Source: a virus (taxonomy: Duplodnaviria > Heunggongvirae > Uroviricota > Caudoviricetes). From it: a stretch of 64,000 nt of DNA. The position numbers and the translations under genes are program-made. Below are positions 5,073 to 56,907 of the stretch, in pieces. The notes under the pieces are model-generated. The model was not told the origin of the DNA and ran no database searches. It saw only the letters and a list, made by a program, of their open reading frames with translations. The first letter of the stretch is position 1. Each line of letters opens with the position of its first letter. The stretch is taken from IMG/VR virus record IMGVR_UViG_3300045988_154997, positions 1 to 64,000 of that record. One strand, written 5' to 3'.

Positions 5073-5666
5073 CTAAGCAGCCTTCTTTGATGGTCTTTTT
5101 TTCCTGATCACATTCGCAGGATCATACCCTCCCAGACTTTTCATGACGTCCAAAGGGATCTTGCTTATAGAGTGCCCAGCGTCCTGACAGAATCCTCGAA
5201 AAACAACGAGCATACTGCCACCTGGGTTGATGTTTACTTCTACCTGACCCAGATTGACGTCAGGCTCGACAAACGCTACGCGGCCACCAGACAGAATAAT
5301 CGTCTCATTCGCACACTCTGTTGCACGCTCATACCACTTTGTATCTAGGGATTGAGGAATTAGCATCACTGTTGTAACTCCGCGAGCCTGCTCACGTATA
5401 GCCGCATCAATCCAGGGGGAGATTTTGGAGTAGGGTGGATTGAGGAAGGCAATTGTACCTGGCTGTCCCCATTCAGATTTCAAAGCATCACGCTCAACGC
5501 CTATGAAATTAGGCAGCTTTGCATTGTCCTTGTTGCAGGCAACGTCAACATCAAATGTCACTCCAAGATAACGTTGAATGGCAGAAAACAGCCAGTCAGG
5601 TGTTCTCCAGAGGTCACGAAGAGAGTTGTCGCGCTTTCGCTGTTTGATTTTTTCGGCTGCAATCAT
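5073..5666 (-). CDS. DNA N6-adenine methyltransferase (phage Dam-like)
   Basis: FLNPPYS catalytic motif (NPPY) and DVACNKDNAKLPNF region typical of phage N6-adenine MTases. Confidence 0.8.
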   Translation of the reverse strand: MIAAEKIKQRKRDNSLRDLWRTPDWLFSAIQRYLGVTFDVDVACNKDNAKLPNFIGVERDALKSEWGQPGTIAFLNPPYSKISPWIDAAIREQARGVTTVMLIPQSLDTKWYERATECANETIILSGGRVAFVEPDVNLGQVEVNINPGGSMLVVFRGFCQDAGHSISKIPLDVMKSLGGYDPANVIRKKRPSKKAA

Positions 5667-19801: not shown

Positions 19802-20055
19802 GTGTTTTTCCTTTGTGGTTATTTTGATACAAATTCTAAGAGCAATGAGGAGGTAAACAACTATGCATAACGGTATGTTAGGAATGAAACGAGCGCCTTA
19901 ATATACAAAATTTATAAGTAAGTATATACCTATTTATCGTGGCGCAACTTTGCTTGTCTGTATGACTAAAAATAAGACAGGATCACTGTAGAACGCTATG
20001 AGAGCTATTTTGAGGGGGCGTAGATTCTATCTACGCCAATATACGATCTGGAGGG

Positions 20056-20700
20056 TTACAGCGCGTCAGTGGGCTTTTTACGCGCTGCATTTATGCTTAT
20101 GACGCCAGCTTTTGGACGTGGGTCAACAAGGTTAAGCTCTTCTTCACTGTGGTATTCGAGGTCGAACTCACGTTTTACATGTCTGATGTAGATTGCGGTG
20201 AGCAGGCTATCTTTGGTCAGAAAGTGTCCGTAGGATTTGCGGATCACTTCTTCTACCTTCTCGATTTTCTCACCACCCATACAGAGATGATTAAACCGGC
20301 TGTGTTTCCGCAACATTTCGTCTACTGGGCCTGAGTAAACCTTGTCTACTTTCCCAAAACGGATGATTTTCCCTGTGTCTGCGGATACGAGGCAAATCAG
20401 CTTGTCTGGTGATAAACGATCTCGCCACGTCACACCTGAACGGAGTGTGTTGAAGTAGGGAGCATCCAATCCGATGATCGGTTTACGAAATGCGAGCAAT
20501 GGAACGTACCTGATGCAACTGTTTAAATGAAAATTCACACCAGCCTTATCAAGTTTAATTCTGGTTTCGTAGATCGGGCACTTCGCCGCTATACCGCAGA
20601 TGTCACAAAGCAACTTCTGCTTATTCAGGTTGGAATTTGATTCAATAGTGTAGGAGCCGTCTTCAAGACGACGAACCCAGCGCGTGCGTTTTAGATCCAT
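20056..20700 (-). CDS. hypothetical protein
   Basis: 214-aa ORF adjacent to the origin region; no motif recognised. Confidence 0.5.
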   Translation of the reverse strand: MDLKRTRWVRRLEDGSYTIESNSNLNKQKLLCDICGIAAKCPIYETRIKLDKAGVNFHLNSCIRYVPLLAFRKPIIGLDAPYFNTLRSGVTWRDRLSPDKLICLVSADTGKIIRFGKVDKVYSGPVDEMLRKHSRFNHLCMGGEKIEKVEEVIRKSYGHFLTKDSLLTAIYIRHVKREFDLEYHSEEELNLVDPRPKAGVISINAARKKPTDAL

Positions 20701-20778
20701 ATGTCATTTTTCTGTGATTGTTAGCCGAGGCAACGATAACCCACCAGGTGCGCCGAAGGTAGTAAATGCCTGTTTTAA

Positions 20779-20795
20779 TTATTCACATATCCACA
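20779..20795. promoter_or_regulatory. two tandem DnaA-box-like sequences (TTATTCACA, ATATCCACA)
   Basis: Match the TTATNCACA consensus; positioned at the outer edge of the iteron/GATC origin region. Confidence 0.5.
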
Positions 20796-20800
20796 GGATA

Positions 20801-20859
20801 GATCCTAATAAAGAGATCCATAGATAGATCCTTGTATAGATCAAATAAGATCCCCGATC
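20801..20859. promoter_or_regulatory. cluster of six GATC sites in heptamer-like repeats (AGATCC/TAGATCC) - candidate Dam-methylation-sensitive origin element
   Basis: GATC at 20801, 20815, 20827, 20839, 20849, 20856, read directly. Confidence 0.6.
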
Positions 20860-20899
20860 GCTGTAAGCCGCGCCACGACTGGTCTGAAGCCATGTTCAT

Positions 20900-21001
20900 G
20901 TATGCTGCCAGCGGTAATTGATAGTCTGTCAACGGTTCGCCGTATGCTACCAACTGTTTTTGGTATGCTGCCAGCGGCAAATCAAGTATGCTGTCAGCGG
21001 T
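20900..21001. repeat. iteron cluster upstream of rep: 4 copies of 'GTATGCTG(C/T)CAGCGG(T/C)' (one degenerate)
   Basis: Copies at 20900, 20942, 20963, 20986. Confidence 0.8.
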
Positions 21002-21021
21002 TGAATGACAAAGGTGTCCAC

Positions 21022-22116
21022 ATGTCCACAAAAAATAAAAAAGGTAAAAATAACAAAGAAGTAGAAGATAATCTCGACAACTTTGAAGAAGGTTCCCTTG
21101 AATTGTACACAGGGGAACTTGTCCCTAATAGCAACAATACAGTCCAACCAATTGCGTTGATGCGACTGGGGTTGTTCGTCCCCACGCTTAAGGGAACAAA
21201 ATACAGTAAACGTAACAAGCCAAATGAGATCGATGCTTCAAAGGAGCTTGTCCAGCTCGAAGTAGCCCGTTCTGAAGGCTATTCCGATATCAAGATAACC
21301 GGTCCTCGCCTGGACATGGATCATGATTTCAAAACGTGGGTGGGCGTTGTGCGTTCGCTGGCAGAATACGGCGAACCTAACGGTCGTGTCGAGTTAAGCA
21401 TCACGAAATTTGCGAAGTTTTGTGGCTATCCATCGTCACAGATCCGCAAAACACTCCGCGACCGGCTTACAAACAGTCTTTTGAAGATCATGCGTACAAC
21501 TCTGTCTTTCCAGAGAACGTATGAAGAAAAGAACGTCGACGGCTCTAACAAGATCTCGCTTCTGATGGTGCACCTCATCAATAGCGTGGACTACAACGAG
21601 CAGAAAGATACGGTGGTGTTCTATGCAGAACCGAAGCTGGCCGAACTATATCGCTTTGACCATAAGGTTCTTTTGCAGTTAAAGGTTATCAATAAGCTAC
21701 CACGCAAAGAAACAGCACAGGCTCTGTACACCTTCATCGAAAGTCTTCCAACCAAGCCTGCGCCGGTATCGCTTGCTCGATTGCGTGCGCGACTCAATTT
21801 GAGTAGCAGGAATGTCAGCTCGCAGAATCAGACTATACGCAACGGCTTAAAAGCTCTCCAAGATTTGGGTTATCTCGAATACAGCGAGATTAAGCGAGGG
21901 CGGTCGATCTATATCCAGATTCACAGCCGCAATCCAAAACTCAAAGTCGCACCGCCAAAACCTGAAGACATCGAACCCAAAAAACTAGATGAGAAAGCCG
22001 GGGAAATTGATGCCAAACAGAACATTATCAATAAGATAACCGAACTTTCGCAGAATTTGACGCCTGAAAATATCAAGATGATTGAGATCCTTTCCAATAG
22101 TCTCAAACTACTTTGA
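21022..22116 (+). CDS. repA: Iteron-type replication initiator (RepA-like)
   Basis: ORF flanked on both sides by iteron arrays; start set at ATG 21022 (AAAGG RBS) because the ORF-track start 20902 lies inside the iterons; Lys-rich N-terminus. Confidence 0.6.
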   Translation: MSTKNKKGKNNKEVEDNLDNFEEGSLELYTGELVPNSNNTVQPIALMRLGLFVPTLKGTKYSKRNKPNEIDASKELVQLEVARSEGYSDIKITGPRLDMDHDFKTWVGVVRSLAEYGEPNGRVELSITKFAKFCGYPSSQIRKTLRDRLTNSLLKIMRTTLSFQRTYEEKNVDGSNKISLLMVHLINSVDYNEQKDTVVFYAEPKLAELYRFDHKVLLQLKVINKLPRKETAQALYTFIESLPTKPAPVSLARLRARLNLSSRNVSSQNQTIRNGLKALQDLGYLEYSEIKRGRSIYIQIHSRNPKLKVAPPKPEDIEPKKLDEKAGEIDAKQNIINKITELSQNLTPENIKMIEILSNSLKLL

Positions 22117-22233
22117 TATGCTGTCAGCGGTGAAATGTATGCTATCAGCGGCTATTTTTCTGAAAAGTATGCTGTGAACGGTTAAAGATATGCTACCAGC
22201 GGTATAGTGAGATAAACGTATGCTGTGAGCGGT
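22116..22233. repeat. iteron cluster downstream of rep, 5 copies
   Basis: Copies at 22116, 22137, 22167, 22188, 22218 (about 21-30 bp spacing). Confidence 0.8.
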
Positions 22234-22393
22234 AAATCATCTATCACCACTCAATGCTCTTTTAAACCTCCCCAGTGGTTACTAACCTCGAAGAGTGCAT
22301 TCCATATAGGTTTGCGCTCACTAACATTCTATTCCCATTGCGTTGATTACTTGTAGTGAAAGGTATTTATTGCCTGCTGCCCCCTGATAGAAC

Positions 22394-22648
22394 GTATGCT
22401 GTCAGCGGTGTTTTATTGAGGAATTTTTGTTTGGATATGCTATCAGCGGTAATTAATGGCATATGTCAGACCTTCGTATGCTGCCAGCGGTAATTTTGTT
22501 CTGGTTATACCCATACCGGTACACATTATTCATGCAATGTCTTAAGTATGCTGTCAGCGGTAAAAAATCGAGTAAAGTATGCTGTGAGCGGTGAGATAGA
22601 CTCTCGATATGCTATCAGCGGCAGTTGATTGTGTATGCTGTCAGCGGT
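22394..22648. repeat. second downstream iteron cluster, 7 copies (incA-like copy-control array?)
   Basis: Copies at 22394, 22435, 22476, 22546, 22577, 22607, 22633. Confidence 0.8.
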
Positions 22649-22906
22649 GACGACTATGAAATATGACTGCGGAACGTGCCGCAGTCAGTTTGCATTTAGT
22701 GTATTTTCTTCAACAGACCCCAAAGTGTTCCGGCTTTTGTAGTCAGTTTTCCTGTTTCTGGATCGTACATACGCCATTCACGCCGCTGGTGGACGATATA
22801 CCCATCTTCACGTTCCAGACGCTCAAGAATGCCAGGCTGCTTGAACCCTTAGCACGCCAGTAGCCGCTTGTTTTCTCGATTTCCAGACCTGCCAGTGTTA
22901 ATGCCA

Positions 22907-23242
22907 TTATCCAACCTCCTTGCAGTCATCGAAAAGGTAGCTTTGCTGAGAAGCGTGAACGCCATAGAAGCCCTTGTATTTGTTGTATACGAAGTGGTCT
23001 TCTCCGACGCCGGTTAATTTGCCATTACGATTTGTGAGATATGGGGATGACAACACTCGATCGTCACGCACAACATAGAACTGGTCGCCGCTGTCTACGA
23101 CCATCGCTCCATATGGTGCTTTTATGACGTCGGTAAGAGCGCCATTCTTAACGTCGGCTACAGACATTTCACACTGATAAACAGTGGTGTCGGCCACAAC
23201 GATCGAAGAAAGGAACAACAGCGCGAATGGGATGGCCTTCAT
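22907..23242 (-). CDS. secreted protein (signal peptide), unknown function
   Basis: 111-aa ORF with N-terminal MKAIPFALLFLSSIVVA. Confidence 0.5.
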   Translation of the reverse strand: MKAIPFALLFLSSIVVADTTVYQCEMSVADVKNGALTDVIKAPYGAMVVDSGDQFYVVRDDRVLSSPYLTNRNGKLTGVGEDHFVYNKYKGFYGVHASQQSYLFDDCKEVG

Positions 23243-23418
23243 GCTGCCACCTCTTTGATTACATCAAATGCTGAATTAAATACGAGCACGATAGCCAAAG
23301 CGTTTATGACTACGTCGTGCACCGGGGAAAAGACTTTACGAATGACACCAGTGAAAATGCAGTCGATGACAAAAGCTATTGAAACGATGAGTAACAAGTA
23401 TTCAATAAAAATCTTCAT
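23239..23418 (-). CDS. small hydrophobic protein (59 aa), uncertain
   Basis: Unlisted ORF MKIFIEYLLLIVSIAFVIDCIFTG...; stop overlaps the start of 22907..23242; no obvious RBS. Confidence 0.25.
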   Translation of the reverse strand: MKIFIEYLLLIVSIAFVIDCIFTGVIRKVFSPVHDVVINALAIVLVFNSAFDVIKEVAA

Positions 23419-23457
23419 GATAGGTAGATACTAACTTATATAAATTTTACTGTAAAC

Positions 23458-23733
23458 TCACTCAAAAGTGCTGATGCTTAAAATACGCTCAAGATGTTCG
23501 GCATCTTCATCACTGATTTGTTGAGTCTCTTCTACGTACCAACAGTTGCCGTTATGCCAACAAACACCATCATCATCAACCATCACTGAATCAGCGTCAT
23601 GACCTGTATATTCAACGAGAATACGCTGGATCAGCGCGTCAGTTTCTTCGTCGTTAAGGCCATCGGCTTTGACCATAAAAAGCGGAAACACGTCATAGAC
23701 AGTGCTGGTAACGATTCGAACTAAAACTCTCAT
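23458..23733 (-). CDS. hypothetical protein
   Basis: 91-aa ORF with the shared initiation sequence. Confidence 0.5.
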   Translation of the reverse strand: MRVLVRIVTSTVYDVFPLFMVKADGLNDEETDALIQRILVEYTGHDADSVMVDDDGVCWHNGNCWYVEETQQISDEDAEHLERILSISTFE

Positions 23734-41232: not shown

Positions 41233-41521
41233 TGCTTTGCCTCGTTATGCGCTTCGCTGGGGAACGTGTAGCGGTTAGTGAAAGAGCTGAGGTGGTAGTG
41301 CTCGTGAATGTATGGATTTGACTTCTGCACCTGACGAGATGCGCGACGCGCATGTTTACATTTATTTCCCATATTGAGTCCTTTCAAGTGAGTATCCGAA
41401 AGAACTATACAGTTAACGTGCGTAAAAAGTAAGTGCTTACCTATCATTTATTGATAGAAGAATAGCCGCCTGTCGTGTGATACTATTTACAGAACTAAAC
41501 TGGCTTTCCACAAGGTGTAAA

Positions 41522-42343
41522 ATGACTATCCTTGAAAATCCTGATGCGAATGTTGAATCTGTTTATAGTCTTCATCCAACCACGTTGTTTCATTTTACAA
41601 AAAACGAAGATGCTTTCTATAGCATATTGGCTGAGAAATATTTTAAACCATTTCTTGCTCGCGAGGAAATAAGAGGAGTCGGGGGACGCAGGAGGTTTGC
41701 AGTACCAATGGTATCGTTTTGTGACATAAAACTATCACAAATCAGAGATCATAGCGGAAAATATGGAGAATTCGGTCTTGGGCTAACTAAGTCTTGGGCG
41801 GAAAAGAAAGGTCTACACCCAGTTCTATATATGAATAAGAGTAGTGAAATATTTTCTAAATACAATGCCAGAATTCGACTTATTAAAAATAAGTTGGTGC
41901 CGCTTTGGAAGGCTAGAGGAAATTTAGATACCAAAAACAGAATAGAGTTTGAGAAATTGAAAGCAGAATATTCTGATCTATATAATTTACTGCGTTATAT
42001 GAAAAATTACAGAGGCAAGCTAGAGCGAAAAGATAATAAAACAATAGAGAATTATATATATGCAGACGAGAAAGAGTGGCGTTATGTGCCAGCTCCTTTT
42101 ATTGGTGATTTATGGCCTAGTCTGAGTTTGGAGCGTGTTATCACTTCTGATGACAAAGCAAAAATTAGCTCAAAATTTTCAAAGTTTGGCATTGATTTTG
42201 AGTTCAATGATATAAAATATATACTTATACCTAAAGAACAACATATCCAAAAGCTAATTAACTTTCTCTCAGGTTTAGATGGATTTGAATCTTCAATTAT
42301 TAGCAAAATTCTGACCATGGATAAAGTAAAGCAAGATTTTTAA
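41522..42343 (+). CDS. DUF2971-like protein (candidate defence cassette, gene 1)
   Basis: RBS AAGGTG-N4-ATG at 41522; motifs LFHFTKNEDAFYSIL and HSGKYGEFGLGL resemble the LYKY.../...HKG.C.GF signatures seen in the clearer DUF2971 protein at 55116..55835; AT-rich. Confidence 0.45.
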   Translation: MTILENPDANVESVYSLHPTTLFHFTKNEDAFYSILAEKYFKPFLAREEIRGVGGRRRFAVPMVSFCDIKLSQIRDHSGKYGEFGLGLTKSWAEKKGLHPVLYMNKSSEIFSKYNARIRLIKNKLVPLWKARGNLDTKNRIEFEKLKAEYSDLYNLLRYMKNYRGKLERKDNKTIENYIYADEKEWRYVPAPFIGDLWPSLSLERVITSDDKAKISSKFSKFGIDFEFNDIKYILIPKEQHIQKLINFLSGLDGFESSIISKILTMDKVKQDF

Positions 42344-42369
42344 TTTTTGGTTTAACGGGAGCCTAATTA

Positions 42370-43581
42370 GTGTCAATATTTTTAAGCGAAAAGGAAATGC
42401 AAAATTGGATAATTGACAAATTATCTGATCAAGATGGATTATATAATTCAATCATCAATATTGATAAATTAAATGAATTTAATCCGAAAAGACCCGAAGA
42501 GAAAAAAATTAAGGAGAGTTATCAGTTTTGTTTAAAGAACATAACATTGTTACATTTAATGACAGATGATGAGAATATCTCAGCAACAAAATCTGAGATA
42601 TTAAGACCTGATGTCGTTGCTTATTCAACAGAGAATGAATCCTTAGTTCTTATTGAGTTAAAAAATTTTTCAACACCAACAAGGGAAGCTGGAACTGAGC
42701 TAGTGGCATATGCTGCGGAACTAAAAAGTTACTTGTCATACTTGTCTGATGGAGATATTACCAATGTACTTATATCACCTGACTGGCCACCTTTGGTTAG
42801 ACACTTTATTTTTAATATGATCGTGTGGCAGAAGAAAAACTTTCTATGTTTAGAACCTTGCTATGATTTACAAGGTAACGTATCACTTACTCCTTTAGAT
42901 ATTAATAAATTAGTTATTGCGGAAGAAGCACTCAAGTTCTCATTTCGTCATCTTGGCGGGTTTCATATATGTTTGTATGATGATGAAATGTATAATCAAC
43001 CGACTTCCACTTCTCGTTTACATTCGAAATTGAATGTTATTAAAGCCAGCATGGCAAAAATGTCCTCAGACGGTGAAAAGACTAATAGCCATGGGTTTGC
43101 TATTTTATGTAGAAATTTGAACGAGAGAACTTTAGCACCATATACGATTACTCTAGTTAATGTTTCTGCGTTTTCTTCCATAGAGCGATACTTTCATTCG
43201 CCACAAATATCCAATGCTTCTCAACTCCCTAGAATAGGACAAAAAATTTATGACATTTACACTCATTACCAACCATCAGGTTTTGGGGCATCAATGTCGA
43301 AAATTTACAATTCTGGGAGGGCATATTTAGAAAAAATTAATTGCAAGCCGCGGATCGAGGTTATAGACACCTGGGATGTATTGCAAGTACATACACATGC
43401 GCCTTATATGGAAATGGTTCATATTGAAACGTGGGGAGTTTTTAAAGAAAAATTGATTGAAGGTCTAAATGAATGTTATGAGGATGAATATTACACACCT
43501 GATTTTAACGATGTAGATTTTTGCATGGTGTGTATTGAATCCTTAATTGACCAGAATTATGAATTTATAAAACTTTTTTGA
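42370..43581 (+). CDS. PD-(D/E)xK nuclease-like protein (candidate defence cassette, gene 2)
   Basis: GTG start with GGGAG RBS; N-proximal RPDVVAYSTENESLVLIELK fits D...E-x-K restriction-endonuclease-like motif; rest unrecognised. Confidence 0.45.
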   Translation: MSIFLSEKEMQNWIIDKLSDQDGLYNSIINIDKLNEFNPKRPEEKKIKESYQFCLKNITLLHLMTDDENISATKSEILRPDVVAYSTENESLVLIELKNFSTPTREAGTELVAYAAELKSYLSYLSDGDITNVLISPDWPPLVRHFIFNMIVWQKKNFLCLEPCYDLQGNVSLTPLDINKLVIAEEALKFSFRHLGGFHICLYDDEMYNQPTSTSRLHSKLNVIKASMAKMSSDGEKTNSHGFAILCRNLNERTLAPYTITLVNVSAFSSIERYFHSPQISNASQLPRIGQKIYDIYTHYQPSGFGASMSKIYNSGRAYLEKINCKPRIEVIDTWDVLQVHTHAPYMEMVHIETWGVFKEKLIEGLNECYEDEYYTPDFNDVDFCMVCIESLIDQNYEFIKLF

Positions 43582-43584
43582 AGA

Positions 43585-43608
43585 AAAGGGGCCGAAGCCC
43601 CTTTGAAT
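43585..43608. terminator. bidirectional hairpin terminator (GGGGC-cgaa-GCCCC) closing both the plus-strand cassette and the minus-strand tRNA operon
   Basis: Read directly; T-run TTTTCTTCAAAAAA on minus strand, weaker T-run on plus. Confidence 0.6.
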
Positions 43609-55879: not shown

Positions 55880-56239
55880 TTAACCTTTCTTCATCAACTC
55901 GCGTTTGATTTCATCGGTACGCATCGTGACGTCGGCAGCAGTGATCGCCTCGTTAAGTTTCACGATATCCTCGATTTCCTGCGGCGACTTCTCTGCCAGA
56001 TGGAAAATAGCAGCACGAATCACATCAGAGCGGGTGAATTTCTCGAAGCGAGGGATGAACTTCATCATCTCCAGCAGTTCGAAGTATTCGTCTTCCAGTG
56101 ACATTGTGCGGCTTTTAATTTTCTCTTTGCCACGAGTCGGGCGTCCCTGTGGTCTGACTGGTTGGCGCAAAGGAGTTGTGTTCTTAGCCGGTGCATCAGG
56201 CTCTTTGCGCTTTGCTAGGTCACCCATTTTCATGGACAT
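55880..56239 (-). CDS. ribbon-helix-helix centromere-binding protein (ParG-like partner of ParA)
   Basis: Basic/Pro-rich N-terminal tail then RHH-like SRTMSLEDEYFELLEMM...RSDVIRAAIFHLAEK; directly downstream of parA. Confidence 0.5.
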   Translation of the reverse strand: MSMKMGDLAKRKEPDAPAKNTTPLRQPVRPQGRPTRGKEKIKSRTMSLEDEYFELLEMMKFIPRFEKFTRSDVIRAAIFHLAEKSPQEIEDIVKLNEAITAADVTMRTDEIKRELMKKG

Positions 56240-56907
56240 TATTCTTCTTCCTCCAGACTCAACAGATAATCTACAAATTCTTCAAACTCGGCTTCCGCCT
56301 TTTTGTCGCGCTCGCTACCGGTCATTTCAAAGATAGAACGACCAGACTCTTCCGCATCATCGTAGACGTTGCGGTTATATAGATTGACAGGCGCAGACTC
56401 GATGCCAAACGTCTCGACAATCTCTTTAGCCGCCAGAATGCGAGACACTTGTGATGGCAAAGCCGGGCACTGGTTCATGACCGCGCGGACCTTCACTTTA
56501 TCGTTTACATTGCGAACATTGTCGATAATAGGATCGATGTCACGTAAAGATTTCAAATCACGACGCTTAGGACGCAGCGGGATAATGATAACGTCAGCCA
56601 TCAGCATCGCTTGTCGCTGAATTTCGGAGTCGAAGCCACCAGCATCTACCACTACATACTCAGCTCTACCCTGAAGCGATTTTAGGTGCTTAATGATGTC
56701 ATCCTGAACGTATGCAAAAGGAATCAGCTCAAGGTCTTCGTTCTGTCGACGGTCTTCACACCAGCTCGTTGTCGTGCGCTGAATATCTATATCGGTGATA
56801 TAAACCTTCTTCTTCTTTTTGACTTTCAGGCAAACGGCAATTTGCTGGGCAACGGTGGATTTGCCAGGCCCGCCCTTTGTGCCGCCAACCACAAAGATCT
56901 TGGTCAT
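56239..56907 (-). CDS. parA: ParA-family partition ATPase (small, type Ib-like)
   Basis: Deviant Walker A KIFVVGGTKGGPGKST; 222 aa. Confidence 0.8.
   Translation of the reverse strand: MTKIFVVGGTKGGPGKSTVAQQIAVCLKVKKKKKVYITDIDIQRTTTSWCEDRRQNEDLELIPFAYVQDDIIKHLKSLQGRAEYVVVDAGGFDSEIQRQAMLMADVIIIPLRPKRRDLKSLRDIDPIIDNVRNVNDKVKVRAVMNQCPALPSQVSRILAAKEIVETFGIESAPVNLYNRNVYDDAEESGRSIFEMTGSERDKKAEAEFEEFVDYLLSLEEEE

Follow-up and report, generated by a model that had tools for sequence, protein, structure and literature searches.

A predicted P1 RepA/RepFIB-family replicon in an SSU5-supergroup phage-plasmid of Escherichia coli

The DNA analysed here, a stretch of 64,000 nucleotides referred to as the window, carries at positions 20779-22649 a gene for a replication protein enclosed by arrays of short repeats. 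This arrangement raises the question of whether the region maintains its element as a plasmid, and whether its likeness to the replicon of bacteriophage P1 reflects descent or only a similar layout. The answer favoured here, with a probability of about 0.85 judged from the sequence, is that the region represents the low-copy, theta-type plasmid-prophage replicon of an SSU5-supergroup phage-plasmid of the pECOH89 lineage, and a diverged member of the P1 RepA/RepFIB replicon family. At the level of sequence comparison, the likeness to P1 is true homology, beyond mere resemblance, and the replicon function of the region is deduced from that homology. No experimental work on this replicon was found in the literature searched, and the published descriptions that were found say nothing beyond "RepA", "IncFIB-like" or four downstream iterons in Klebsiella relatives.

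The host element and its Rep protein

The window is 100% identical to the E. coli plasmid pEc2-51408 (112.6 kb); its identity with Escherichia phage PhiR41_1 is 98.9%, and pECOH89 belongs to the same lineage. The element corresponds to an SSU5-supergroup phage-plasmid, that is, a circular element of about 100-115 kb with an SSU5-like gene set; its genes include those for a tail fibre, a DnaB-like helicase, a primase, DnaE, a ligase and nrdAB, and the genes flanking the replicon are common to the window and SSU5. Since helicase, primase, DnaE and ligase genes are encoded by the element itself, its reliance on host replication proteins may differ from that of P1. Among 5,426 complete E. coli genomes, 120 (2.2%) contain the replicon; all 185 matching places lie on plasmids and none on a chromosome. 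MOB-suite types rep_cluster_488 as the sole replicon of the source plasmid, and likewise of E. albertii derivatives of 62-64 kb. The comparisons below draw on 76 related loci whose Rep proteins are 77-100% identical to the one described here; a scan of GTDB genomes contributed just two loci, from Klebsiella sp. and Rosenbergiella.

The rep gene (21022..22116, plus strand) encodes a RepA-type iteron initiator of 364 amino acids, which was identified from the list of open reading frames, Pfam, BLASTP and a fold model, and it is indeed the 364-aa frame that the sequence-only reading had placed between the iteron arrays. In two lineages an in-frame stop sits 3-4 codons before the start codon at 21022, which supports this start. 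By BLASTP, Rep and P1 RepA show 46% identity along 278 aa (E 4e-86); by tblastn, Rep is 47-50% identical to the RepFIB RepA of IncF plasmids (E about 1e-84), thousands of IncF plasmid records being matched. Pfam Rep3_N (PF01051) is detected with 37.5 bits against a cutoff of 22.4 (E 3.9e-9). A sequence search against the PDB returned no match at E <= 1, and the fold search alone was informative. The AlphaFold model is of medium confidence (mean pLDDT 72), and Foldseek matched it to RctB domains 2-3 (E 4e-7, the top match), RepE (3e-6), a WH1 domain (1.5e-4), pPS10 RepA and TrfA, with low global TM-scores of 0.33-0.40. As modelled, Rep is a tandem winged-helix (WH1-WH2) iteron initiator of the Rep_3/RepE class. 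Its N-terminus is disordered, and at the C-terminus two further helices form an extension missing from P1 RepA; with its N- and C-terminal extensions it is 78 aa longer than the P1 protein.

The origin core and the upstream iterons

The left edge of the predicted origin is formed by two tandem DnaA boxes (20779..20795, plus strand), found by pattern scan and aligning to the annotated DnaA-binding site of P1 oriR. Two such 9-mers had been noticed from the sequence alone; one is exact and the other matches at eight of nine positions. Box 1, TTATTCACA (20779-20787), fits TTWTNCACA exactly and is one of six such matches in the window, while box 2, (A)TATCCACA (20787-20795), agrees with TTATCCACA at 8/9 positions and overlaps box 1 by one base. 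A second tandem DnaA-like pair, GTGTCCACA / ATGTCCACA, was read from the sequence at the right edge of the origin (21014..21030, plus strand), where it overlaps the rep start codon. This motif is kept in relatives, including Rosenbergiella, although the start codon is shifted there. P1 also has extra DnaA boxes on the rep side of its origin.

Next to the left-edge boxes lies an AT-rich GATC cluster (20796..20860), a putative Dam-methylated, SeqA-sequestered opening region recognised from the GATC count, the alignment to P1 and duplex stability. The earlier count of six GATC sites within about 60 bp holds: the sites start at 20801, 20815, 20827, 20839, 20849 and 20856 and span 59 bp. Five are units of the heptamer type (AGATCC/AGATCA) and one is CGATCG (20800-20860). 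This density is unique in the window, where the runner-up 70-bp stretch holds three sites, and the Poisson expectation of such a cluster over the whole window is about 6e-4. In the alignment the cluster falls on the Dam sites annotated in P1 oriR, of which there are five against six here, and it is found in related loci too. The GC content of the region is 35%, and its 40-bp duplex stability of -43 kcal/mol (window mean -53 +/- 4) places it among the least stable duplex stretches of the replicon. Between the cluster and the iterons there is a GC-rich spacer (20861..20899; GC 57% over 20856-20899) containing GCCGCGCCACG (20867-20877); the GC-rich block is identical in P1 and in the Cronobacter and Klebsiella relatives.

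Taken as a unit, the DnaA boxes, the GATC heptamers and the GC-rich block (GCCGCGCCACG..CTGG) align base-for-base to annotated P1 oriR. Identity to P1 is 77% in this core, 60% in rep coding DNA and 47% in the iteron region; together with the RepA homology, the core value bears out the P1-like architecture that the sequence-only reading had proposed. Compared with a Klebsiella relative (Rep 85% identical), the core shows 75% identity. It is thus about equally close to P1 and to this relative, which suggests constraint from host factors. Both SSU5 and an IncF RepFIB replicon also have this core, with a DnaA box and five GATC sites.

The iterons were located by a repeat search, and a position weight matrix (PWM) built from the resulting 16 copies was scanned over both strands of all 64,000 bases. 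The 16 copies lie on the plus strand, belong to one family and score 19.7-30.0 bits; no further iteron above 12.1 bits was found in the window on either strand. The match at 12.1 bits itself, ATAGTCTGTCAACGGTT at 20921, lies 21 bp from each neighbour, and the position is occupied by a perfect iteron in the Cronobacter and Klebsiella relatives. This phasing and the perfect copies in relatives indicate that the upstream array comprises five iterons rather than four, 17 in total. The sixteen iterons described earlier as flanking rep are therefore all in place, and the upstream count had missed the degenerate copy. The five origin iterons (20900..21002, plus strand), equivalent to P1 incC, start at 20900, 20921, 20942, 20963 and 20986; their spacing of 21, 21, 21 and 23 closely follows that of P1 incC (21, 21, 21, 22), and in both replicons five iterons phased at about 21 bp stand directly upstream of rep. 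Inside rep, an inverted partial iteron (21356-21377) matches the complement of iteron 3 plus its left flank at 17/19 positions; it was judged a chance match because its PWM score is below 8 bits and nothing iteron-like lies inside rep of the scanned relatives.

The iteron core TATGCTnnnAGCGGT, the layout of five upstream iterons plus two downstream arrays, and the overlap of an iteron with the rep stop codon are kept across the 76 loci, while flanks and spacers are not conserved. The sequence-only reading had named absence of conservation in relatives as grounds for giving up its proposal; core and layout were found in 76/76 loci. Among close relatives, variation amounts to 5.5% in iteron columns against 6-13% in spacers and the gap, a weak signal, and it is the between-lineage comparison rather than the close-lineage one that serves as the informative test of constraint.

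A sigma-70 scan found no plus-strand promoter upstream of rep, and a looser scan gave only weak candidates (7-9/12) overlapping the iterons. The positional equivalent of P1 PrepA reads TTGGTA (20960), 18 nt, AAGTAT (20984), merely a 7/12 match. With candidates this weak, the overlap of iterons and promoter is deduced by analogy: from the position of this equivalent, the rep promoter would lie within the upstream iterons.

The downstream arrays and where the origin lies

Downstream of rep, the twelve iterons reported earlier in two clusters are confirmed as five plus seven by the repeat search and PWM. The proximal array, equivalent to P1 incA (22116..22234, plus strand), has five direct copies starting at 22116, 22137, 22167, 22188 and 22218 (spacing 21, 30, 21, 30). 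Its first iteron begins at the final base of the TGA stop, an overlap kept in 75/76 relatives and shared with P1. The distal array (22394..22649, plus strand) has seven direct copies starting at 22394, 22435, 22476, 22546, 22577, 22607 and 22633 (spacing 41, 41, 70, 31, 30, 26). All 12 are direct, as they are in the 76 relatives save for one distant minus-strand match in three loci. The proposed mirroring of P1 thus stands for the layout, the five phased upstream iterons and the stop-codon overlap, and fails for orientation: P1 incA has nine iterons, three direct and six inverted, whereas here there are twelve in two arrays, all direct.

The arrays are separated by a 160-bp gap (22235..22393). 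It contains a conserved block, CCCAGTGGTTACTAACC (22271-22287), with the palindrome GGTTAcTAACC, and also TCACTAAC (22318-22325). The block is kept in lineages whose Rep is 100%, 92% and 87% identical and is absent from the Klebsiella lineages. A search for structured RNA gave no Rfam match at E <= 1 over 20000-23500, gap included. Part of the gap, CAGTGGTTA, resembles part of the SSU5 iteron; relic SSU5-type iterons were rejected here, as a PWM built from 26 SSU5 iterons gave no match of >=12 bits. Beyond the distal array, a GC-rich hairpin with a 9-bp stem (22664..22687), found by a terminator-like scan and as inverted repeat I2, looks like a bidirectional terminator and would mark the outer boundary of the replicon against converging minus-strand genes.

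Copy number at the outer end of the distal array varies among close relatives. Phage PhiR41_1 is without 87 bp, equal to three iterons, and plasmid p4_0.2 has one additional 26-bp unit, so that near-identical elements of the E. coli lineage have 9, 12 or 13 downstream iterons. Across relatives the downstream arrays comprise 8-13 copies, and spacing varies too. It is conceivable, though on balance unlikely, that the all-direct distal array acts as an evolvable copy-number rheostat, expanding and contracting by recombination between iterons. If so, plasmid copy number would shift and with it cargo dosage, for example of CTX-M-15 on pECOH89-type phage-plasmids, and the uniform direct orientation would impose an origin pairing geometry unlike that of the mixed-orientation P1 incA.

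With 12 iterons downstream of rep and five upstream, the true origin might be sought in the downstream arrays, a placement commonly predicted for Rep_3 plasmids, the upstream iterons then being merely the rep operator. A study of IncpKPHS1 replicons in Klebsiella relatives implies this placement, since the iterons it lists are just four, all located 48-218 bp past repA (PMC6735626). Yet the DnaA boxes, the GATC cluster and the AT-rich stretch of low stability occur upstream only, the segment carrying them can be aligned with P1 oriR, which was defined by experiment, and the free variation among relatives in array size (8-13 copies) and spacing is more in keeping with a dispensable control locus than with an origin. 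A downstream origin is therefore considered very improbable.

Even less weight falls on the idea that the downstream arrays form a partition centromere or another cis site for a protein other than Rep. Direct-repeat arrays can be plasmid centromeres, and no recognisable par operon or parS lies beside the replicon; however, the downstream repeats share one 16-bp core with the origin iterons, and in P1 the homologous place is taken by incA, a locus that RepA binds. Moreover, a small ParA-type ATPase (222 aa, 56239-56907) is encoded with a 119-aa downstream partner at 55880..56907 on the minus strand, as found by NCBIfam and among the open reading frames. The ATPase matches NCBIfam ParA_partition at E 2.3e-33, under the curated cutoff, and the pair is likely the partition system, situated about 34 kb from the replicon and hence not adjacent to it as in P1. 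The reading of the rep-flanking repeats as phage attachment or recombination sites is scarcely credible. It derives from the GenBank record of Klebsiella phage pJN2-26, in which two 20-bp sites flanking rep are labelled attR/attL; both coincide with iterons of a 13-copy family, and the matches in complete E. coli genomes were all on plasmids, with 0 integrated. Most likely a prophage-finding tool produced the label in error. The upstream region thus remains the preferred origin, with the downstream iterons as a control locus.

Relation to known replicons, proposed mechanism and significance

Among the closest known replicons is that of P1 and P7 (oriR-incC-repA-incA, IncY), with homologous RepA, DnaA boxes, GATC heptamers and GC-rich block. 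The iteron consensus is GTATGCTGTCAGCGGT here and GATGTGTGCTGGAGGGAAA in P1, so a different incompatibility specificity is expected. In P1 the parA-parB-parS operon directly follows incA, whereas small converging minus-strand genes are found here. Of the marks of the P1 replicon proper (IncY), the iteron sequence, the mixed-orientation incA and the adjacent par operon are all lacking; those of the wider P1 RepA/RepFIB family, namely a homologous initiator, DnaA boxes, GATC heptamers, and upstream and stop-codon iterons, are all present.

RepFIB of IncF plasmids (P307/F type) likewise has iterons on both sides of rep and an upstream core of the same kind. Typing tools assign the replication genes of the SSU5 group to IncFIB (bioRxiv 10.1101/2025.09.12.675607), and MOB-suite gave a Klebsiella relative the same type. 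The differences are that RepFIB has iterons of the ACATAAGCTGTGG... type, mostly inverted downstream in the example compared, and is carried by a conjugative plasmid rather than a phage-plasmid. Salmonella phage SSU5 and pHCM2, the type members of the supergroup, share the genomic position, the flanking genes, the RepA family and the DnaA/GATC core. Nevertheless, SSU5 RepA is just 48% identical, its iterons are AACCACTGTAGAGAGTA, it has two copies of the origin core, one of which has decayed, and its approximately 15 downstream iterons occur in both orientations, mostly inverted. Such differences within an otherwise conserved phage backbone indicate that the replicon has diverged or been swapped. 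As downstream iterons are mostly inverted in P1, RepFIB and SSU5 and all direct here, the pairing geometry may differ. A functional analogue is ori2/RctB of V. cholerae chromosome II, where an origin with iterons and a DnaA box depends strictly on Dam, is sequestered by SeqA and is accompanied by extra initiator sites that regulate it through titration and handcuffing (PMC6090056). Although RctB domains 2-3 are the best structural match to the Rep model, sequence homology is undetectable (the structural alignment gives 12-13% identity). RctB is a four-domain protein that uses 39-mer sites, and GATC lies inside the iterons in ori2, as opposed to a separate heptamer cluster here.

Rep-iteron binding, dependence on Dam and DnaA, autorepression and copy control by the downstream arrays are all proposed by analogy with P1. 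Rep monomers would bind the five phased iterons (20900-21002), and host DnaA would bind the left-edge boxes (20779-20795) and probably also the weaker boxes of the right edge (21014-21030). Melting would occur in the AT-rich stretch of GATC heptamers between them (20796-20860), firing being predicted to need its Dam methylation, and the hemimethylated stretch would afterwards be sequestered by SeqA, delaying re-initiation. Origin-bound Rep may also repress the rep promoter. The 12 downstream iterons (22116-22234, 22394-22649) would limit copy number by titrating Rep and by handcuffing with origin iterons, the general mechanism described for downstream iterons (review PMC12361487).

The sequence-only reading had further suggested that a Dam-like methyltransferase encoded by the element at 5073..5666 could gate initiation. 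The gene exists (minus strand) and is a genuine phage N6-adenine DNA methyltransferase, matching TIGR01712 with 113.9 bits against a cutoff of 97 and labelled "phage N-6-adenine-methyltransferase" in RefSeq; its membership in the replicon is only putative. Methylation of the GATC cluster by this enzyme rather than by host Dam would agree with the six sites in the origin and could permit firing in hosts without Dam. It is nonetheless regarded as improbable: a GATC specificity of the enzyme would have to be assumed, and IncF RepFIB plasmids have the same GATC core. Furthermore, Dam is present in Escherichia, Shigella, Salmonella and Klebsiella, the known hosts of these elements, and the Dam homologue of P1 serves packaging instead of plasmid replication. 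Host Dam is thus the preferred agent in the proposed mechanism.

The replicon reveals no new mechanism, and its map corrects a start codon propagated through databases and the attL/attR mis-annotation. It is predicted to constitute its own incompatibility group, and its iteron-number polymorphism is a simple, checkable candidate source of copy-number variation. Placement in the P1/RepFIB family turns three decades of P1 genetics into directly testable predictions, including Dam/SeqA gating, chaperone-activated RepA and handcuffing, for what would be the maintenance replicon of a phage-plasmid family widespread in E. coli, Shigella and E. albertii, some members of which carry ESBL genes.

Iteron arrays and origin core

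The replicon at 20779-22649 contains a single repeat family of 16 direct copies, all on the plus strand, as established by a repeat search and by direct reading of the region. These copies lie exactly where the sequence-only reading had placed them, with four (20900, 20942, 20963 and 20986) upstream of the 364-aa rep ORF (21022..22116, plus strand), five in a proximal array immediately after rep (22116-22234) and seven in a distal array beyond it (22394-22649). A PWM built from the 16 copies was scanned over both strands of the entire 64,000-base window, and these sites scored 19.7-30.0 bits, against 12.1 bits or less in the rest of the window. The best outside score, 12.1 bits, occurs at 20921, exactly 21 bp from either adjacent iteron, and relatives from Cronobacter and Klebsiella have a perfect iteron at the equivalent position. 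The upstream array thus comprises five iterons (spacing 21, 21, 21, 23), of which the one at 20921 has decayed in this lineage; the four originally described are present, while their count requires correction. A 19-nt inverted match (17/19 complementary) was also noticed between iteron 3 with its left flank (20934-20952) and a site within rep (21359-21377), which is probably due to chance, since relatives show no iteron-like site at that place in rep.

To the left of the iterons, six GATC sites at 20801-20859 form the sole cluster of more than three per 70-bp stretch anywhere in the window (Poisson expectation ~6e-4). The sequence TTATTCACA at 20779, among six sites in the window that match TTWTNCACA exactly, is directly followed by (A)TATCCACA as a tandem DnaA box. 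Both the cluster and the tandem 9-mers proposed earlier were therefore confirmed. The heptamer stretch (35% GC) is among the least stable duplex segments of the replicon. A second tandem DnaA-like pair, GTGTCCACA / ATGTCCACA at 21014-21030, overlaps the ribosome-binding region and start codon of rep, has the same one-base overlap as the left pair, and its motif is retained in Rosenbergiella despite a displaced start codon.

The annotated P1 oriR can be aligned with this origin at its tandem DnaA boxes, its GATC heptamers and its GC-rich block GCCGCGCCACG..CTGG. Identity to P1 is 77% across the origin core, 60% across the homologous rep coding sequence and 47% across the iteron region. P1 and a Klebsiella relative with an 85% identical Rep are about equally close to this core (77% and 75%), a pattern expected if host proteins (DnaA, Dam, SeqA) constrain the core while iterons co-evolve with Rep. 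The same kind of DnaA/GATC core occurs in an IncF RepFIB replicon and in Salmonella phage SSU5.

The Rep initiator

Rep carries the Pfam Rep3_N (WH1) domain and is 46% identical to P1 RepA across 278 residues (E 4e-86), 47-50% identical to RepFIB RepA from thousands of IncF plasmids, and only 48% identical to SSU5 RepA. An AlphaFold model based on an alignment of 34 sequences (mean pLDDT 72) predicts two winged-helix domains, preceded by a disordered N-terminus (residues 1-43) and followed by a two-helix extension at the C-terminus (331-363); P1 RepA, which is 78 aa shorter, lacks this extension. In a Foldseek search of the PDB, this model matched RctB domains 2-3, RepE, a WH1 domain, pPS10 RepA and TrfA.

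A longer version of the protein is annotated in RefSeq (WP_162534749, 404 aa), and represents a protein cluster with 667 members. RefSeq/PGAP places its start codon within iteron 1 (ATG of GTATGCTG), and the extra part corresponds to 20902-21021; its first 40 residues are therefore translated iterons. Because an in-frame TGA lies 3-4 codons 5' of the conserved ATG at 21022 in two related lineages, and the P1 RepA alignment begins only at residue 32 of the shorter form, the evidence argues for the 364-aa version starting at 21022 as the real Rep.

Conservation and the downstream control locus

The sequence-only reading had made its case dependent on conservation of the repeats, and these are kept in the 76 relative loci scanned (74 from IMG/VR and 2 from GTDB; Rep 77-100% identical). 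The upstream array is present in every complete locus, with 3-5 copies above the threshold used, and the GATC cluster in all 76. Two downstream arrays, with 8-12 copies in total and all in direct orientation, are likewise found in all of them; the most distant locus, Rosenbergiella, has only 4 downstream iterons, also direct. The iteron core (G/A)TATGCTnnnAGCGG(T/C) is identical across lineages, with variable flanking bases and spacers.

The P1-like reading is supported by the RepA homology, the oriR-core alignment and the layout, in which the last base of the rep stop codon is also the first base of the first downstream iteron, as in P1. The iteron sequence differs from that of P1; thus, the replicon is not IncY and is expected to constitute a separate incompatibility group. 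The downstream iterons are direct throughout and divided into two arrays, whereas P1 has six inverted copies alongside three direct ones, and those of RepFIB and SSU5 are mostly inverted. Unlike in P1, no par operon follows the arrays, and a small ParA-type ATPase is encoded 34 kb away.

The 160-bp gap between the arrays (22235-22393), a further difference from P1, holds a block composed of CCCAGTGGTTACTAACC (palindrome GGTTAcTAACC, 22277-22287) and TCACTAAC (22318-22325). This block is kept in three lineages (Rep 100%, 92% and 87% identical) and absent in Klebsiella lineages, where the inter-array gap is merely 75-87 bp start-to-start. Among near-identical elements, the distal array is polymorphic at its outer end (22546-22649), with 9, 12 (most) or 13 downstream copies. 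Escherichia phage PhiR41_1, with 9, lacks exactly 87 bp, or three iterons, between two iterons (L002, 3990-4080), which equals the distance between iterons 22546 and 22633; plasmid p4_0.2, with 13, has one additional 26-bp unit (L089, 757-890).

Two observations concern other relatives. SSU5 (L004, 1760-2400 and 3500-4110) has a duplicated origin, in which copy 1 (~1760-1995) has an intact DnaA-box/GATC core and 5 iterons, while copy 2 (~2150-2400), adjoining repA, has a decayed core (GATC to GAACC/GACCC) and 6; about 15 downstream iterons occur in both orientations, and the iteron, AACCACTGTAGAGAGTA, is unrelated to that of the window. In Klebsiella phage pJN2-26 (L009, MZ779062), two rep-flanking iterons (1333-1352 and 2603-2622) are labelled attR and attL in GenBank, almost certainly in error by a prophage-prediction tool.

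Proposed mechanism and host element

ORF 5073..5666 (minus strand), previously called Dam-like, encodes a true phage N6-adenine methyltransferase, scoring above the TIGR01712 cutoff. Gating of the origin by this enzyme is possible but unsupported, as the GATC sites are the sole link and the hosts of these phage-plasmids have Dam. A mechanism can be derived by homology from P1 and RepFIB, following the general iteron mechanism (PMC12361487) and Dam/SeqA logic (PMC6090056). Rep monomers would occupy the five phased iterons, DnaA would bind the left tandem boxes and probably the second, weaker pair, and the heptamer stretch between the bound sites would open. Dam methylation would license the origin, and SeqA would sequester it in the hemimethylated state once fired. 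Rep sitting on the origin iterons would repress the rep promoter. Since the upstream gene is divergent, this promoter must lie within 20701-21021; the candidate corresponding in position to P1 PrepA matches at only 7/12. The 12 downstream iterons would limit copy number via titration and handcuffing.

The 2-kb replicon region matches E. coli plasmid pEc2-51408 (112.6 kb) at 100% identity and PhiR41_1 at 98.9%. At 97-99% identity it also matches ~120 plasmids, roughly 100-115 kb in size, whose hosts are E. coli, E. albertii, E. fergusonii and Shigella sonnei; pECOH89 and E. coli O104:H4 p09EL50 are among them. The surrounding genes (tail fibre, DnaB-like helicase, primase, DnaE, ligase, nrdAB, thymidylate synthase, integrase), together with flanking genes common to SSU5, identify the element as an SSU5-supergroup phage-plasmid. 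The replicon is present in 120 of 5,426 complete E. coli genomes, with all 185 matching places plasmid-borne and none chromosomal. MOB-suite detects rep_cluster_488 as the sole replicon on the source plasmid, and finds it on reduced 62-64-kb E. albertii derivatives, which fits a role as the maintenance replicon. The latter (e.g., NZ_CP034165.1, L087) and 72-76-kb E. coli plasmids have the replicon in identical form, including all 17 iterons; these much smaller elements resemble deletion derivatives of the phage-plasmid that now persist as ordinary plasmids, probably after losing phage functions. Candidate defence cargo, based on RefSeq annotation of the identical plasmid with approximate converted coordinates, includes a type I restriction HsdR subunit gene (minus-strand end, 1-582) and, at 41500-43600, an antitoxin gene of the AbiGi family together with an adjacent ORF.

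The PlasmidFinder reference 'IncFIB(H89-PhagePlasmid)' presumably corresponds to this replicon. SSU5-group rep genes are filed under IncFIB by typing tools (bioRxiv 10.1101/2025.09.12.675607). All that the pECOH89 announcement mentions is a RepA identical to the p09EL50 protein and 48% identical to its pLF82 counterpart, and the IncpKPHS1 study of Klebsiella relatives (PMC6735626) describes just four iterons downstream of a repA whose product has no known domain. Neither the full origin architecture nor an experiment on this origin was found in the literature searched. Overall, the evidence supports a well-preserved member of the P1/RepFIB family in a clinically common phage-plasmid. This placement is unsurprising to specialists; of modest interest are the all-direct, two-part and length-polymorphic control locus and the strongly conserved host-factor core.
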